DNA from: Sinorhizobium meliloti
GTDB taxonomy: Bacteria > Pseudomonadota > Alphaproteobacteria > Rhizobiales > Rhizobiaceae
Direction: 5' to 3'
NCBI RefSeq assembly: GCF_017876815.1
Contig: NZ_JAGIOS010000001.1
Location: forward strand, 3,510,001-3,542,000
DNA length: 32,000 nt
The notes beneath the pieces are model-generated. The model was given only the letters and a program-made list of their open reading frames with translations. It did no database searches and had not been told where the DNA came from. How positions within the stretch are numbered: position 1 is the stretch's first letter; the number at the start of each line of letters is the position of its first letter. Shown piece by piece: positions 1-4,881 of the stretch. The translations under genes and the position numbers were made by a program.

Positions 1-68
1 CCAAGGACGCTCGCGGAATTGCGCAGCGGCCGATGTTCTTCAAGGTGTGGGTGAACCGGTTCCCTGAC

Positions 69-100
69 GGAGGCGGCGCAGTCGCAGCGCCTCCGTTTTT
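69..100 (+). terminator. Intrinsic terminator-like hairpin for an upstream + strand transcript
   Basis: GGAGGCG (69-75) pairs with CGCCTCC (88-94) across a 12-nt loop, followed by G-TTTTT (95-100). The T-run is on the + side only. Coding status of 1-67 is ambiguous (see rejected list). Confidence 0.55.
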
Positions 101-150
101 GCCGTGCGAGCCGGCGCCGCCGTTTGGCTCGCAATGGAATTGGCCGCGCA

Positions 151-260
151 GAGGTGACACTCACCTCGGGAGGTGACACTCACCTCGGGAGGTGACACTC
201 ACCTCGGAGGCGGCGATCACCTTGGAGGTGACGATCACCTCGGAGGTGACGATCACCTCG
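151..260. repeat. Tandem array of six 18/19-nt self-complementary units (GAGGTGA-N3-TCACCTC-GG)
   Basis: Read directly. There are two 19-nt units and one 18-nt unit of GAGGTGACACTCACCTCG(G) at 151-206. One degenerate unit GAGGCGGCGATCACCTTG follows at 207-224, then two units GAGGTGACGATCACCTCG at 225-260. Each unit is a 7-bp stem with a 3-nt loop palindrome. Confidence 0.9.
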
Positions 261-369
261 GCGGGACGAGACCTTGATAGTAATCCCCGTCACCGCCGAC
301 CACCCGGTCCCCGGTGTGCGAGCACGCCGCCAGCGTGGCGAGTGCGAGCAACAACACGATCTTGCGCAT
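253..369 (-). CDS. Micro-lipoprotein paralog 1 (38 aa): MRKIVLLLALATLAACSHTGDRVVGGDGDYYQGLVPPR
   Basis: ATG at 369 and TGA at 255-253, hand-translated (below the ORF-track length cutoff). Lipobox LAAC after a hydrophobic h-region. AAAAGG sits about 11 nt upstream. Shares the G-[DE]-G-x-YY-x-G-[LV]-[VI]-PP tail with two paralogs. Confidence 0.55.
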   Translation of the reverse strand: MRKIVLLLALATLAACSHTGDRVVGGDGDYYQGLVPPR

Positions 370-404
370 AGGCCCCCGTACCTTTTCTAACAGTTTGACG
401 GCCA

Positions 405-433
405 TTGATATTCTGCCATTCGCGCAGGATCAA
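405..433 (-). promoter_or_regulatory. Candidate sigma70-type promoter for micro-lipoprotein 1
   Basis: On the minus strand, TTGATC (433-428), a 17-nt spacer, then TATCAA (410-405), about 35 nt upstream of the ATG at 369. Pattern match only. Confidence 0.35.
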
Positions 434-554
434 TTCCCAACCGCGCAATCCACACGGTCCTGCGGCAGCGCTTCTTACACCATCCGGGCTCCTACATCGG
501 TCCCGAGAAATCGGAACCGATTGTCGGAGGCGCGATGCCGCATGCAACGTCTCA

Positions 555-686
555 TCAGCGCTTCGGGGGTATCAAGCCGGGATAGTATTGCCCGTCCCCT
601 CCATAATACCGTTCGGCGCTGGGCGTCGCCGTTTGTGAGCACGCGCTGAGAACGAAGACCGCCACCAACATTCCGATTGCCCGCAT
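555..686 (-). CDS. Micro-lipoprotein paralog 2 (43 aa): MRAIGMLVAVFVLSACSQTATPSAERYYGGDGQYYPGLIPPKR
   Basis: Internal ATG (686) of track ORF 555..782. GAAAGGA lies 8-9 nt upstream. Lipobox LSAC. DNA and protein are both similar to paralog 3, and a CTATAT -10-like box sits about 20 nt upstream. Confidence 0.6.
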   Translation of the reverse strand: MRAIGMLVAVFVLSACSQTATPSAERYYGGDGQYYPGLIPPKR

Positions 687-879
687 AGAGTATGTCCTTT
701 CGCATATAGATTTCCGCAACCGGGTCGCGCCGACGCGCTGCATCGGCTCTCCGTTGCACCTGCAATTGTATATGCGATTCAACCGCCGATGAACACGATT
801 CCGTGATCTCTACCATCAAGTGCAGCTCCCGTATTCCCCCAACCGGCCCACTTGGGTGTCGAACCGGTCAGGTACCGCA

Positions 880-956
880 AGCCGGTCGCTATGATGGCTG
901 CGCCCGGAGTGAGCGTTGCCGCAGCGGTGCCGACCGCCAGGACGTCACGGGCACGG
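880..956 (-). pseudogene. Decayed duplicate of the 3' end of the PCu(A)C gene (compare 1878-1990)
   Basis: 880-943 aligns by eye with 1878-1943 at about 85-90% identity (..GATGGCTG..CCGGAGTGAGCGTTGCC..GCGGTGCCGACCG.CAGGAC). It has a 1-nt deletion that shifts frame and a 34-nt deletion before the shared GTCACGGGCACGG. No intact ORF corresponds to it. Confidence 0.45.
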
Positions 957-1090
957 TGCGCGGGCGCCTCTCGTGAGGCATGCAGCGACAGCCCTCTTGC
1001 GATGCGACGGAAGCGGGTTCGTGCGCCGCATTTGGGGCTTCGATTGATGCGTGTCGTTCTTAAAGCCGCTATAGACCTGAGCGACATGCT

Positions 1091-1225
1091 TCAGAGAGGC
1101 GTCGGGGGTACGACGCCGCTATAGTATTGGCCTTCTCCCGTATAGTACCGTTCGGCGCTGGGCCTTCCTGTTTGCGAGCACGCGCTGAGAGCAAAGATCG
1201 CCAACAACAATACGATCGCGCGCAT
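1091..1225 (-). CDS. Micro-lipoprotein paralog 3 (44 aa): MRAIVLLLAIFALSACSQTGRPSAERYYTGEGQYYSGVVPPTPL
   Basis: ATG at 1225 and TGA at 1093-1091, hand-translated (not in the ORF track). GAAAGGA lies 8-9 nt upstream. Lipobox LSAC. The SAERYY..G.GQYY..PP tail is nearly identical to paralog 2. Confidence 0.6.
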   Translation of the reverse strand: MRAIVLLLAIFALSACSQTGRPSAERYYTGEGQYYSGVVPPTPL

Positions 1226-1485
1226 AGACTTACGTCCTTTCGTGAGTGAACTTCTTCAATATGACTTTTATGAACTAGATTTTTTCCGGCGCAGAAGCCG
1301 CGCCGGTTCTCGGTTACGGCTGCGATTGTACATGCCGTTCAACCGACGGTACACAAAATTGCGCAATGTTCAGCCCCGCAGCCCTCGAATCGTTACGATT
1401 TTCCTAAAATCCGATCACCCGATTTCACCTGCTCGCAAGCGCAGTCTGGCACAGGAAAGGATTATCATGCCCGAGGACTGACAGG

Positions 1486-1857
1486 ATGACCCAGGTCGTT
1501 ACCATCTCCGCGACGACGGCGGCCTATGCGGCGGATGCATTGAAGCCGCCCACGCGCTTGCGTGGCGATGGACCTGCCGACGAGGCAATCACACTGCTTT
1601 GCGCGCGCGGCCAAGAGCAGGCGCCGGTCCCGAAGGTCAGAAGCGCGCTGCCGCTGCACCTCATGCTGATCGCTGCAGAGCGCCGTCTGCCGCAACAGAC
1701 GCAGGCCGAAACGCTGCGCCGCTATCTCGAAAACGCCGAGAACGAGGACGAGGACGGGGGCGGAGGCGATCGCCGGCGGGAAGACAAGCCTGCCGGCGAT
1801 GAACAGGAACTGGACGAAATCACCGAAATGCTCGACCGGCTCGTTCAGGGATCCTGA
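1486..1857 (+). CDS. Hypothetical protein (123 aa) with a strongly acidic C-terminal half
   Basis: ATG is preceded by GAGGA 8 nt upstream. Third codon positions are G/C-rich throughout. No recognisable domain by eye. Convergent with the copper chaperone gene. Confidence 0.55.
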   Translation: MTQVVTISATTAAYAADALKPPTRLRGDGPADEAITLLCARGQEQAPVPKVRSALPLHLMLIAAERRLPQQTQAETLRRYLENAENEDEDGGGGDRRREDKPAGDEQELDEITEMLDRLVQGS

Positions 1858-1886
1858 GCCGGTCGACGCGCTTTCCTGTCAGTGTT

Positions 1887-2867
1887 CTATTGATGGCTGT
1901 GGCCGGAGTGAGCGTTGCCCGCGGCGGTGCCGACCGGCAGGACATAGTCGACCTCCCCCGCCTTCTCGAAGGTGAGCGTCACGGGCACGGCATCGCCTTC
2001 GGCAAAGGGCTTCTTCACCTCCATGAACATGAGATGCAGGCCGCCGCTCTTCAGCTCGACGGTTCCGCCGGCGGGAACGGCAATGCCGTCCTCGAGCTTG
2101 CGCATTTTCATGACGTCGTTCTCCATCGTCATTTCATGGAGTTCGACCCGGCCCGCGGCCGGGCTCTCGACGGCAAGCAGCCGGTCGTCGGCACTGCCGC
2201 CGTTCCTGACCACGAATCCGCCGCCGCCGACCTTGGCGCCGGGCAGCATGGCCTTCACGGCTCCGCCCGAGATCTCGAGATCGCCGAGCCTCACCGTTTT
2301 GGGCGCGGACTGATGATGCCCTCCGTGACCGGAATGCTCGTCGCCCGCCGCCATGGTGACGGTGATCGTCGGCGCCGGATGCTCGAGGGAATGGGCGTCC
2401 TCGCCCTCCGCCGCCACCTGATCCCAGACCACCTTGCCGTCGGCGCCGCAAAGCTGCGTCGTCGGAAAGGCAAGCACGGTCTCCTTGTCGAAGCCCGCGA
2501 GTTTTCCGCGCACGACGAAGGTGTCGTAATGTTCGTCGGGAAGGTTGCCGCCTTTCCAGCGAATTTCCAAGGGACCGGAGGAAACCTTGGTGCCGTGATC
2601 GTCATAGGTTTTCCGGTAGTCGCCCTTGATGATCTCCAGCTCCCAGCCGGGCTTAGGCTGGGGCTTGGCAAAGACGAATCCCTCCGGCAGCTGCACCCGC
2701 ACTTCGGTCGTCGCCTTGCCGTCGCAGCCATGCGGCACCTGAAGCGTGGCGTTGACGGTCGTTTCGGCCGGCGCGCTGCCCGTCTCGAATGTCGCATGCG
2801 CATGGGCGAGCCCTGTGGCGGCGAATGTGAGGCCGGTGGCAAGCAAGGAAAGTCTGATCGTGTTCAT
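1887..2867 (-). CDS. Periplasmic copper-binding fusion protein: YcnI (DUF1775) N-domain plus PCu(A)C (DUF461) C-domain
   Basis: Signal peptide ends ..GLAHA followed by HATFE (N-terminal His typical of YcnI). The C-half carries the H-x-M..M..H-x-M pattern (ELHEMTMENDVMKM ... GGLHLMF) typical of PCu(A)C. His-rich linker and tail (HSGHGGHH, HSGHSHQ). Confidence 0.85.
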   Translation of the reverse strand: MNTIRLSLLATGLTFAATGLAHAHATFETGSAPAETTVNATLQVPHGCDGKATTEVRVQLPEGFVFAKPQPKPGWELEIIKGDYRKTYDDHGTKVSSGPLEIRWKGGNLPDEHYDTFVVRGKLAGFDKETVLAFPTTQLCGADGKVVWDQVAAEGEDAHSLEHPAPTITVTMAAGDEHSGHGGHHQSAPKTVRLGDLEISGGAVKAMLPGAKVGGGGFVVRNGGSADDRLLAVESPAAGRVELHEMTMENDVMKMRKLEDGIAVPAGGTVELKSGGLHLMFMEVKKPFAEGDAVPVTLTFEKAGEVDYVLPVGTAAGNAHSGHSHQ

Positions 2868-2959
2868 GTCGTAATCTCCGAACCACGTGCCGGAACGCGG
2901 CCTTCGTGGGTCAATGCCGCATAGCGGCGCAAGAAATTCTGGGTTGGATTCGAGGAGAT

Positions 2960-3355
2960 TTACGGCTGGGCCGGCGGGCCGCGCGGTGGCGGCAGCAGGC
3001 GCAGGGGCAGAAGCACCGCCTCGGCGGCGACGATCGGCGTTCCGGCAGTCCAGTCGCCGTTTTCGGCCGGCAGGCTTTCATCGGGCGCCGCCGGCAGGAG
3101 CACGGAGGCGGCGAGCCGGCAGGCTTCGCAAACGGGAGCAGATGACGACGACTTGCCGTGGCCGGCGTCATGATCGACGCCGCCCGTGCCGAAGCAGATA
3201 TCGGCGAAGGTGCCGTCGGGGAGAAGATATTCGCCGGAAATCGCCGGGCCGGCCGCTTTCGCAAGGGCTGGCTTATGGGCGAAGGACAGGAATAGGAGTG
3301 CGAAGGCTGCGAGCAGCCGCATCGCAATTCCCCATTTCCGCTCGCGCCCTGTCAT
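2960..3355 (-). CDS. Small secreted Cys/His protein, possibly DUF2946-like, upstream partner of the YcnI-PCu(A)C gene
   Basis: Signal peptide MRLLAAFALLFLSFAHKPALA. The mature part has DHDAGHG and a CEAC motif. Start is ATG 3355 (AGGTGG upstream) or ATG 3322 (GGGGA upstream). Same strand as the copper chaperone gene and 92 nt upstream of it. Confidence 0.5.
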   Translation of the reverse strand: MTGRERKWGIAMRLLAAFALLFLSFAHKPALAKAAGPAISGEYLLPDGTFADICFGTGGVDHDAGHGKSSSSAPVCEACRLAASVLLPAAPDESLPAENGDWTAGTPIVAAEAVLLPLRLLPPPRGPPAQP

Positions 3356-3477
3356 GGCCACCTCTCTTCGGTCTTCCCTATCCGCTGCCCAAAGAAATTG
3401 CAAAGGCCGATTTTGCCGCACTTGTCGCGGAGGATGAAGTCAGGGCGACAAAAATATGTTTGGTCGCGACATAGGCC

Positions 3478-3506
3478 CTTGCCAAAATCCGGCCTTCGCC
3501 GTTATC
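3478..3506 (+). promoter_or_regulatory. Candidate gcv promoter (CTTGCC-N17-GTTATC)
   Basis: Resembles the rhizobial CTTGAC-N17-CTATAT consensus. It places the transcription start about 7 nt downstream, just before the first riboswitch aptamer. Pattern match only. Confidence 0.35.
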
Positions 3507-3514
3507 TGGATTCG

Positions 3515-3670
3515 ACCTCGTTGGGAGAAACCGGTTCGATCCGGTGCCGAAGGAGCAACCGCCCCGGAAACTCTCAGGCCAAAGGACCAGCAAGGTGCCG
3601 GTAGGACTCTGGAGAGAAGCGTTCGCGCTCGCCGAAGGGATAACAATCTCAGGCAAAGGGACAGAGGGGG
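3515..3670 (+). promoter_or_regulatory. Tandem glycine riboswitch (two aptamers) controlling gcvTHP
   Basis: Aptamer 1: GGGAGAAACCGG..CCGGUGCCGAAGGAGCAACCGCC..CUCAGGCCAAAGGACCAGC. Aptamer 2: CUCUGGAGAGAAGCG..CGCUCGCCGAAGGGAUAACAAUCUCAGGCAAAGGGACAGAGG. Both match the GGAGA..CCGAAGG.GCAA..CUCAGGCAAAGGAC core, and the position upstream of gcvT is canonical. Confidence 0.88.
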
Positions 3671-3741
3671 CTCGAATTTGTCGGCGCATGACGCCGGTAT
3701 TGTGAGCCGGCGCGAAAACGCGCCAGACCTGGAGGCCGGAC

Positions 3742-4881
3742 TTGGAAGACGTTTCCACCTTGAAACACACGCCTTTGCACGCGCTGCACCTTTCGCTCGG
3801 TGCACGCATGGTGCCCTTCGCCGGTTACGACATGCCGGTCCAATACCCGGAAGGCGTATTGAAGGAGCACCTGCATACCCGCGCCGCCGCCGGCCTCTTC
3901 GACGTGTCCCACATGGGACAGATCGTCGTGCGGCCGAAATCGGGAAAAATCGAGGACGCGGCGCTGGCGCTGGAAAAGCTCGTGCCGGCGGATGTTCTCG
4001 GCCTCGCGGAAGGCCGACAGCGCTACGGCCTCTTCACCAATGCCGCAGGCGGCATTCTCGACGACCTGATGATCGTCAATCGCGGCGATCATCTCTTCCT
4101 CGTCGTCAACGCGGCCTGCAAGGATGCCGATCTTGCGCATCTCAAGGACGGTCTCGGCAGCGTCTGCGACGTGACCATGCTGACCGACCGTGCCCTGATC
4201 GCCCTTCAGGGACCCCGGGCCGGAGCGGTCCTCTGCGAACTCTGGGCGGACGTCTCGTCGATGCGCTTCATGGATGTCACCGAAGCCGACCTTCACGATG
4301 TGAGCTGCATCATCTCCCGCTCCGGCTACACCGGCGAGGATGGCTTCGAGATATCCATTCCCGCGGAAGCGGCTGTGGATGTGACGCAGCGCCTGCTCGA
4401 ACATCCCGACGTTCTGCCCATCGGGCTCGGCGCGCGCGACTCGCTCCGCCTCGAAGCGGGGCTTTGTCTCTATGGCAACGATATCGACACGAATACGAGC
4501 CCCATCGAAGCAGGCCTCGAATGGGCGATCCAGAAAAGCCGCCGCGCCGGCGGTGAGCGCGCCGGCGGCTTTCCGGGCGCCGGCCGGATACTGGCCGAGC
4601 TAACCGACGGAGTTTCCAGGCGGCGTGTCGGCCTGAGGCCCGAAGGCCGGGCGCCGGTCCGCGGCAATGCCAATCTCTTCGCCGATGAGGAGGGCAGAAC
4701 GGCGGCAGGAACCGTCACCTCCGGCGGCTTCGGTCCAAGCGTGGATGGACCGGTCGCCATGGGCTATGTCGACGCCGAGCACGCCGAAGTCGGCACCAGA
4801 CTGTTCGCAGAGGTGCGCGGCAAATACCTGCCCATCGCCGTCACTGCCCTGCCCTTCATCAAACAAACCTACAAACGCTGA
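3742..4881 (+). CDS. gcvT: Glycine cleavage system aminomethyltransferase (T protein)
   Basis: 379 aa. TTG start with GGAGG 6 nt upstream. Typical GcvT sequence ([48 protein letters not shown]) and gcvTHP context. Confidence 0.93.

Follow-up and report, generated by a model that had tools for sequence, protein, structure and literature searches.

In this study we analysed a 32,000-nt stretch of Sinorhizobium meliloti DNA (hereafter the window) and three short genes on its minus strand, which we refer to as P1, P2 and P3. These are real protein-coding genes under purifying selection at the level of the peptide, and they belong to a family of predicted micro-lipoproteins with two forms, type A and type B. 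Altogether, we consider it likely that P1-P3 are genuine, separate genes for lipid-anchored peptides whose tail binds a shared, genus-specific partner in the cell envelope. The first-pass annotation of this DNA had called three short minus-strand genes at these places, and the open reading frames (ORFs) and their translations agree with it:

253-369, minus strand: P1, type A micro-lipoprotein gene, 38 amino acids (aa), MRKIVLLLALATLAACSHTGDRVVGGDGDYYQGLVPPR
555-686, minus strand: P2, extra copy derived from type B, 43 aa, MRAIGMLVAVFVLSACSQTATPSAERYYGGDGQYYPGLIPPKR
682-701, minus strand: Shine-Dalgarno context of P2, GAAAGGACATACTCTATGCG
1091-1225, minus strand: P3, type B micro-lipoprotein gene, 44 aa, MRAIVLLLAIFALSACSQTGRPSAERYYTGEGQYYSGVVPPTPL
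1221-1241, minus strand: Shine-Dalgarno context and start codon of P3, GAAAGGACGTAAGTCTATGCG

The three peptides share an N-terminus consisting of M-R-x-I, a hydrophobic stretch, a lipobox L-[AS]-A-C and then S-[QH]-T, and a C-terminus that reads G-[DE]-G-x-Y-Y-x-G-[LV]-[VI]-P-P. Eighteen alignment columns are invariant among P1, P2 and P3, and the lipobox and YY-G tail that had been proposed as their common features are present. The predicted mature form of P1 has 23 aa and ends in GDGDYYQGLVPPR, that of P3 has 29 aa and ends in GEGQYYSGVVPPTPL, and the P2 peptide ends in PGLIPPKR. The tryptic peptide of P1 is VVGGDGDYYQGLVPPR, and the P2 and P3 peptides that begin after Arg-26 are YYGGDGQYYPGLIPPK and YYTGEGQYYSGVVPPTPL, respectively. 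The maximal ORFs are 50, 75 and 44 aa long, which means that a 60-aa ORF cutoff misses two of the three genes, just as the first reading of the sequence had it. P2 and P3 were 80% identical at the nucleotide level across 130 nt, and the string shared by their ribosome-binding sites (RBS) matched twice in the window where 0 matches were expected (100 shuffles). The likeness of P1-P3 is therefore not due to chance. The RBS context itself had been described as common to P2 and P3; this match is real, but aligning the two strings (GAAAGGACATACTCTATGCG versus GAAAGGACGTAAGTCTATGCG) takes a 1-nt indel.

A pattern scan covering a single genome of each species found 54 loci, exclusively in Ensifer/Sinorhizobium, and together with the window these loci gave 51 micro-lipoprotein genes (33 type A and 18 type B) in about 33 Ensifer/Sinorhizobium genomes. 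Type B proteins, to which P3 belongs, are 44-51 aa long and end in PPTPF or PPTQF. Type A proteins, to which P1 belongs, measure 36-38 aa in Sinorhizobium and end in PPR. The layout in Sinorhizobium is a type B gene with a type A gene 170-800 nt downstream of it, and genomes of the E. adhaerens clade carry one A-like gene only, of 40-46 aa. P2, an additional B-like copy, was seen in S. meliloti only and is absent in the closest relatives, L001 and L002. The family comprises about 12 clusters in 5.8 billion proteins. A HMMER scan of 1.84 billion representative proteins yielded 15 matches at E <= 0.001, about 13 clusters of which are true family members; the two remaining matches, to eukaryotic-type repeat proteins (Sushi, Tudor/ankyrin), are chance multi-repeat hits.

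Pairwise differences among the family genes were distributed over codon positions 1, 2 and 3 as 4473/2348/9593 for type A and 1548/927/2758 for type B. The ratio of nonsynonymous to synonymous differences (pN/pS) was 0.30 for the 33 type A genes and 0.38 for the 18 type B genes, with pS near saturation, and every indel among the family genes was in frame. From the third-position excess, the low pN/pS and the in-frame indels we can therefore conclude that selection acts on the protein, as the first-pass annotation had argued, and the reading frames are kept in relatives across all 51 genes. When P1 and P3 were compared with their closest relatives, pN/pS was 0.08-0.26 (0.14 for P3 versus L001); the corresponding range for P2 was 0.26-0.49, and P2 versus P3 gave 0.45. 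Selection on the peptide is strong, above all at the lipobox, in CSQT and over the last 14-16 residues.

The existence and translation of these genes have been published before, as probably has their prediction as lipoproteins, and they are not a new discovery: all three ORFs are already present in Tables S7 and S8 of the ribosome profiling (Ribo-seq) study of S. meliloti 2011 by Hadjeras et al. (2023, Microlife, PMC10117765). They are listed there as follows, with translation efficiency (TE) and ribosome-protected fragments (RPF) in reads per kilobase per million (RPKM):

CP004140.1 1679191-1679307: P1, listed as sORF33 / SEP_33, transcript SMc06505 ('ncRNA'), TE 3.2, RPF RPKM 1352/1136
CP004140.1 1677469-1677657: P2, listed as an unnumbered 62-aa call, TE 7.4, RPF RPKM 156/115
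CP004140.1 1676987-1677121: P3, listed as sORF39 / SEP_39, transcript SMc06502, TE 10.3, RPF RPKM 523/390

The ribosome occupancy that had been suggested as a check on the three genes is thus on record for strain 2011. The 62-aa call for P2 begins at an upstream ATG, at window position 743. According to PMC10117765, DeepRibo called P1, P2 and P3 in both replicates, the three sORFs were without an entry in the GenBank 2014 annotation, and two of the 48 novel small proteins, not named there, had LipoP signal-peptidase-II sites; these two are presumably sORF33 and sORF39. The functional hints that it offers for the sORFs are weak Phyre2 matches ('RbsD-like', 'Transferase'). It also reports that the levels of the SMc06502 and SMc06505 transcripts in nodules were below those in stationary-phase culture, and that the P1 transcript in nodules was also below the level of exponential culture while the P3 transcript was unchanged relative to the latter. 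A literature search on SMc06502, SMc06505 or S. meliloti small lipoproteins returned no functional work beyond the 2023 paper.

The exact P1-P3 peptides are also present in S. meliloti assemblies and public gene-call collections. Several S. meliloti strains have P1 annotated as a hypothetical protein or lipoprotein (e.g. SinmeB_1186, UniRef H0G0H3), and P2 and P3 occur in gene-call collections mostly without a name, with the exact P2 peptide on 94 contigs. The initial description of the genes as unannotated thus fails for P1 in those strains, and all three are in gene-call sets and in the Ribo-seq tables; otherwise it holds. Our data and the Hadjeras catalogue agree in the peptide sequences, which are identical, in their translation, and in a lipoprotein prediction for two unnamed sORFs. 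They differ in that the paper, as far as its available part goes, treats the sORFs as unrelated singles, and this part contains no mention that we could find of the paralogy, the genus-wide A/B pair, the shorter P2 start or the occurrence of the motif in larger secreted proteins. What seems to be new here is the genus-wide B-then-A pair, the P2 duplication, the 43-aa P2 start and the module common to the larger secreted proteins.

The spacing between P2 and P1 differs between strains, with a gap of 1533 nt in S. meliloti 2011 (CP004140.1 1677657-1679191) versus 185 nt here (window 369-555). Either strain 2011 has about 1.35 kb of extra DNA at this place, where SM2011_c01240 and/or SM2011_c01253 are annotated nearby, or the window strain has a deletion. 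The extra segment of strain 2011 could be a mobile element.

The predicted lipoprotein signal was assessed with a rule resembling PROSITE PS51257, which asks for a Lys or Arg in residues 1-7, an uncharged hydrophobic stretch, and a Cys at 15-35 within a lipobox of the form [LIVMFWSTAG](2)-[LIVMFYSTAGCQ]-[AGS]-C. All 51 family members, P1-P3 included, conformed to this rule, in support of the lipoprotein signals recognised at first reading. Lipobox versions among the 51 members were LAAC, LSAC, LCAC, LTAC, LAGC and LGAC, residues +2 to +4 were SQT in 38 of them, and mature lengths ranged from 21 to 36 residues. In P1-P3 the signal opens with MR, followed by some 11 hydrophobic core residues and then the lipobox L-[AS]-A-C, and the Pfam model LPAM_1 matched it below threshold (E 0.06-0.19). 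Profile searches of Pfam, NCBIfam and PDB returned no family that matches the mature peptide, in agreement with the earlier view that it belongs to no named family; the similarities seen were sub-threshold and confined to the signal region of other lipoproteins. AlphaFold2 predicted a confident helix (residues 2-19) for the signal of the P1-P3 family only, and modelled the mature part as coil with a predicted local distance difference test score (pLDDT) of 50-61.

We also compared the family with known small lipoproteins and peptide motifs. The entericidins A/B (EcnA/EcnB, PF08085) gave no Pfam or NCBIfam match at E <= 10, and the remark in the first-pass annotation that the peptides are not entericidin-like therefore stands. 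Both groups are proteobacterial lipoproteins of very small size whose mature parts have about 20-30 residues (e.g. Atu8019 of Agrobacterium), and entericidin genes, too, occur as tandem paralogs with separate promoters. However, entericidins form a Gly/Ala-rich amphipathic helix, whereas Tyr, Gly and Pro abound in the mature peptide of P1-P3, for which coil is predicted. A separate 52-aa entericidin homologue is annotated in S. meliloti according to PMC10117765. Matches to LptM/YifL (NF047847) reached 10.6-11.3 bits versus a cutoff of 27.7 (E 0.27-0.46) and covered residues 1-16, the signal, only. Among VirB7/LvhB7 models, LvhB7 scored 12.4 bits versus a cutoff of 70 (E 0.095), again over the signal only. 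The P1-P3 locus has no adjacent Lpt genes and no adjacent type IV secretion system genes. LptM/YifL and VirB7/LvhB7 resemble P1-P3 in combining a lipid anchor with a short, Pro-rich, unstructured peptide that binds a larger envelope protein, and small accessory lipoproteins of the LptM/VirB7 type are the closest model of how P1-P3 might act. The segment GGDGD fails the consensus of an RTX or EF-hand-like calcium loop. RTX repeats follow GGxGxDxUx, occur in tandem and have Asp as the sixth residue of the nonapeptide; GGDGDYYQG has Tyr at position 6 and occurs in a single copy only.

The tail of the micro-lipoproteins is shared with a second group of proteins. The same pattern scan revealed a second locus per genome, where the motif ends larger ORFs of 97-136 aa. 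These proteins, all annotated as 'hypothetical', are found in Ensifer/Sinorhizobium only, bar one record labelled Bradyrhizobium. They carry an ordinary Sec / signal peptidase I (SPI) signal (A-x-A; APAFA|DSYYQGIDPNNPPGTQ), internal (V)DxMPTGSIY repeats and a C-terminus of the form ERYxxGEGDYYRGIVPPxP. An hhalign comparison of the two families aligned their final 20 columns with a probability of 98.1% (E = 9e-14, 70% identity). At their mature N-terminus the larger proteins seem to carry a further, less strict copy of the motif (DSYYQGIDP..PPG). No Pfam domain was found in the two larger proteins tested, and AlphaFold2 predicted nothing beyond the signal helix, with the mature parts as coil (pLDDT 50-61). 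The micro-lipoproteins and the larger secreted proteins (e.g. UniRef H0G9V8_RHIML) thus have in common the homologous C-terminal 20 residues, the taxonomic range and the predicted disorder. The larger proteins differ by having a Sec/SPI signal instead of a lipobox, by the second YYxGI(D)P..PP motif at the mature N-terminus, by the (V)DxMPTGSIY repeats, and by their separate locus downstream of genes for a methyl-accepting chemotaxis protein (MCP) and CheW.

The genes for the larger proteins occur as a tandem pair, the first encoding 111-136 aa and the second about 100 aa (e.g. L026 3099-3482 and 3758-4060). This pair lies directly downstream of MCP and cheW-like genes (L026 287-2832; likewise in L027, L031, L047 and others), an assignment made from sequence features rather than Pfam. 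This position hints at a tie of the larger motif proteins to motility or chemotaxis. Their locus tags were absent from the Ribo-seq table rows listed in the available part of PMC10117765. In S. terangae (L033 3054-3389) a longer paralog has an in-frame stop within the motif (GDYY*GIMPP), and may be a pseudogene or a sequencing error.

How could such peptides act? According to the mechanism that we favour, the Lgt/LspA/Lnt pathway would lipidate the Cys and cleave off the signal. The product would be an acylated peptide of 23-29 residues in an envelope membrane, facing the periplasm, and the Ser at +2 would direct it to the outer membrane by the E. coli rule. The predicted mature peptide has three parts: it opens with the conserved C-S-Q/H-T, continues with a spacer that varies in length and is rich in Gly, Pro, Ser and Thr, and closes with a conserved motif, predicted to be disordered, of some 16 residues, (R)-Y-x-G-[DE]-G-x-Y-Y-x-G-[ILV]-[VI]-P-P. 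Because the same motif ends Sec-secreted, disordered proteins in the same genus, we read the tail as a modular short linear motif that would dock onto a shared, genus-specific envelope partner, with the micro-lipoproteins as the membrane-tethered, monovalent form.

Several points weigh against this proposal. The lipidation and localisation of P1-P3 are predictions from their sequences, and the +2 sorting rule stems from E. coli and might not apply to Alphaproteobacteria. Partner binding is suggested only by modular reuse, disorder and conservation. In PMC10117765 the evidence column of Table S4 gives 'Ribo-seq' only, with no mass spectrometry and no Western blot. Finally, P2 evolves faster than P1 and P3 (pN/pS 0.45-0.49) and may be drifting. 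A bolder version of the docking idea holds that YY-x-G-I-V-P-P is a genus-specific envelope 'address', present once on the lipid-anchored micro-proteins and at both ends of the soluble secreted proteins, which is recognised by one receptor or cell-wall component. We regard this version as speculative and rather unlikely. If true, the Sinorhizobium/Ensifer envelope would contain a tether-and-bridge system that has not been described before, perhaps with modified Tyr residues or a role towards the plant.

The regions flanking the three genes contain further conserved or structured elements:

151-269, minus strand: tandem array of an 18-nt palindrome, GAGGTGA-NNN(N)-TCACCTC, 6.6 copies (Tandem Repeats Finder), beginning in the last codons and stop of P1
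405-433, minus strand: P1 promoter-like element, TTGATC (433-428), 17-nt spacer, TATCAA (410-405)
765-785, minus strand: P2 upstream block, CGGTTGAATCGCATATACAAT, counterpart of the P3 upstream block
892-943, minus strand: non-coding 52-nt remnant of the 3' end of the YcnI-PCuAC gene (direct repeats D3, D4), 92-93% identical to 1891-1943
1276-1296, minus strand: hairpin in the 5' untranslated region (UTR) of P3, CCGGCGC-GGCTTCT-GCGCCGG
1325-1345, minus strand: P3 upstream block, CGGTTGAACGGCATGTACAAT, with an invariant TACAAT at 1330-1325 (18 type B upstream regions aligned)

Upstream of type A genes the block AATTGATCC...GAATATCAATG (TTGATC-N17-TATCAA) is nearly invariant across Sinorhizobium species, and it is the putative promoter of P1. 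An upstream in-frame ATG of P1, at 405, falls within the -10 hexamer, and the 38-aa start would therefore be favoured over the 50-aa annotations. P2 and P3 have a common promoter block, CGGTTGAA-N-GCAT-N-TACAAT, and type B genes including P2 show CGGTTGA(A/G)C...TACAAT about 100-130 nt upstream. If the P3 upstream block acts as a promoter, it would imply a 5' UTR of about 90-100 nt. Each family gene thus appears to have its own conserved promoter block and would be separately transcribed. A simple scan with sigma-70 and terminator consensus sequences missed the conserved promoter blocks and gave no terminator for P1-P3, and inspection by eye for RpoE2-type and RpoH-type promoter motifs upstream of type B genes gave no convincing fit.

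The first-pass annotation had stated that similarity is confined to the RBS and coding sequence (CDS). This has to be revised, since the promoter block is also shared and the 52-nt YcnI-PCuAC fragment lies upstream of P2, although the CDS is still the best-conserved part. This remnant and the shared promoter block mark P2 as a segmental duplicate, which arose by duplication of the unit from the PCuAC end to P3 and subsequent loss of the region between. At the other end of the locus, the 151-269 array folds as one long 3' stem-loop (-81.7 kcal/mol, z = -9.45). The palindrome array has 4.2 copies in L001 and 0 in S. medicae, and in other species a single hairpin often spans the stop codon. The array may represent the variable-number expansion of an element that forms the 3' end of the transcript or stabilises it. 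Type B genes, P2 among them, have a small GCGCAG/CTGCGC hairpin in common in the leader, and the palindrome GCGCAG..CTGCGC recurs at the position of the P3 hairpin in other species.

Upstream of P3 the following genes are found:

1486-1857, plus strand: gene for a 123-aa hypothetical protein (SM2011_c01241 / smc01241), genus-conserved, in divergent orientation
1887-2867, minus strand: fusion of YcnI (DUF1775) and PCuAC, periplasmic copper chaperone, Pfam E 2e-41 and 5e-39

The 123-aa protein is 50-89% identical across the genus, has an acidic C-terminal half and no Pfam domain, and its gene is the left neighbour of SEP_39 in PMC10117765. A transcriptome study reports this gene as one of those activated by the cyclic AMP regulator Clr (PMC5498481). 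We therefore looked for Clr boxes with the consensus HGTYHCNNNNGRWACA, and found none in 1226-1485 and a chance-level count in the window. Further neighbours are gcvTHP, with gcvH and gcvP identified by Pfam and gcvT by position. Upstream of these glycine cleavage genes, at 3506-3668 on the plus strand, lies a glycine riboswitch aptamer (RF03166, glycine-GGAnGA; 73.8 bits, E = 1e-14, below the gathering score of 110), which was the sole Rfam match in window 1-4200; nothing was found over the sORF transcripts, nor anywhere in 1-3500. A minus-strand ORF of 143 aa at 3378-3809 has no Pfam match, and its first 121 residues are 98% identical to the L001 translation. Because this ORF overlaps the riboswitch and the gcvT start on the other strand, its conservation probably reflects these elements and not a gene.

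YcnI-PCuAC is syntenic with the micro-lipoprotein genes in 30 loci across the genus, and the opposite-strand gene for the 123-aa protein is likewise syntenic with them. The synteny with YcnI-PCuAC is the sole basis of a link to the copper response, according to which P1-P3 would be accessory factors of the chaperone in copper handling or cytochrome oxidase maturation, and the piece of the PCuAC gene carried along by the P2-forming duplication points in the same direction. We nevertheless think such a role quite improbable. His, Met and Cys are missing from the conserved motif, the genes have their own conserved promoter blocks, and an opposite-strand gene separates them from the chaperone gene, which is about 2.8 kb away in the E. 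adhaerens clade. Moreover, the larger motif proteins adjoin MCP-CheW genes and not copper genes, and YcnI-PCuAC is widespread whereas the family is confined to one genus.

It is also conceivable that the functional products are the small RNAs (sRNAs) SMc06502 and SMc06505, acting as riboregulators, with the ORFs incidental or the transcripts having a dual function. Both were annotated as noncoding RNAs by Sallet et al. 2013, and Hadjeras et al. raise a dual function for SMc06505, which is shown as a possible dual-function sRNA in their preprint. The unusually stable 3' end of the P1 transcript and the conserved hairpin in the P3 5' UTR would fit with this. It is very unlikely, however, that these RNAs act without their peptides, as the codon-position pattern, the low pN/pS and the in-frame-only indels show selection at the protein level, TE exceeds 3, Rfam had no match in window 1-3500, and the conservation of the lipobox in 51 of 51 members has no RNA-level explanation. 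The transcripts may still have a further role as RNAs.

A similarly low probability applies to peptides that are exported but not lipidated, either as secreted peptides cut by SPI or as single-pass membrane micro-proteins. The homologous larger family does use Sec/SPI signals (A-x-A), and AlphaFold models residues 2-19 as a single helix. On the other hand, the Cys and L-x-[AG]-C are invariant in 51 of 51 members though the rest of the hydrophobic region varies, LipoP assigns signal-peptidase-II sites to two novel S. meliloti sORFs, and the profile matches signal peptides of proven lipoproteins.

The weakest alternative, precursors of Tyr-modified (e.g. sulfated) plant-acting peptides that are surface-exposed or on vesicles, loosely like RaxX / PSY, takes its appeal from the acidic G-[DE]-G-[DE]-Y-Y followed by G-[IV]-[IV]-P-P, which recalls AtPSY1 (DYGDPSANPKHDPGVPPS) in its Asp-Tyr within an acidic Gly-rich context and its G-V/I-P-P near the C-terminus, and from a genus dominated by plant symbionts, but it is extremely unlikely: D-Y is present and the 13-residue PSY/RaxX core (DY.DP.ANPKH.P, DY..P.ANPKH.P) is absent in 51 of 51 sequences, members of the E. 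adhaerens clade also carry the motif, the P1 and P3 transcripts show the low or unchanged nodule levels given above, and the Sec and lipoprotein route offers no obvious access to a cytoplasmic sulfotransferase. RaxX is exported with a leader by a peptidase-containing ABC transporter, whereas P1-P3 have a lipoprotein signal. The tail also shows some resemblance to RaxX21.

The value added by this work is organisational, and as it stands the family has no bearing on a long-standing open question. Annotation routinely misses small lipoproteins, and several of these prove to be key accessory subunits of envelope machines. Our results turn three catalogue entries into one orphan family with a conserved two-gene layout, confined to Ensifer/Sinorhizobium, in which a single motif has at least five carriers and probably a single partner.

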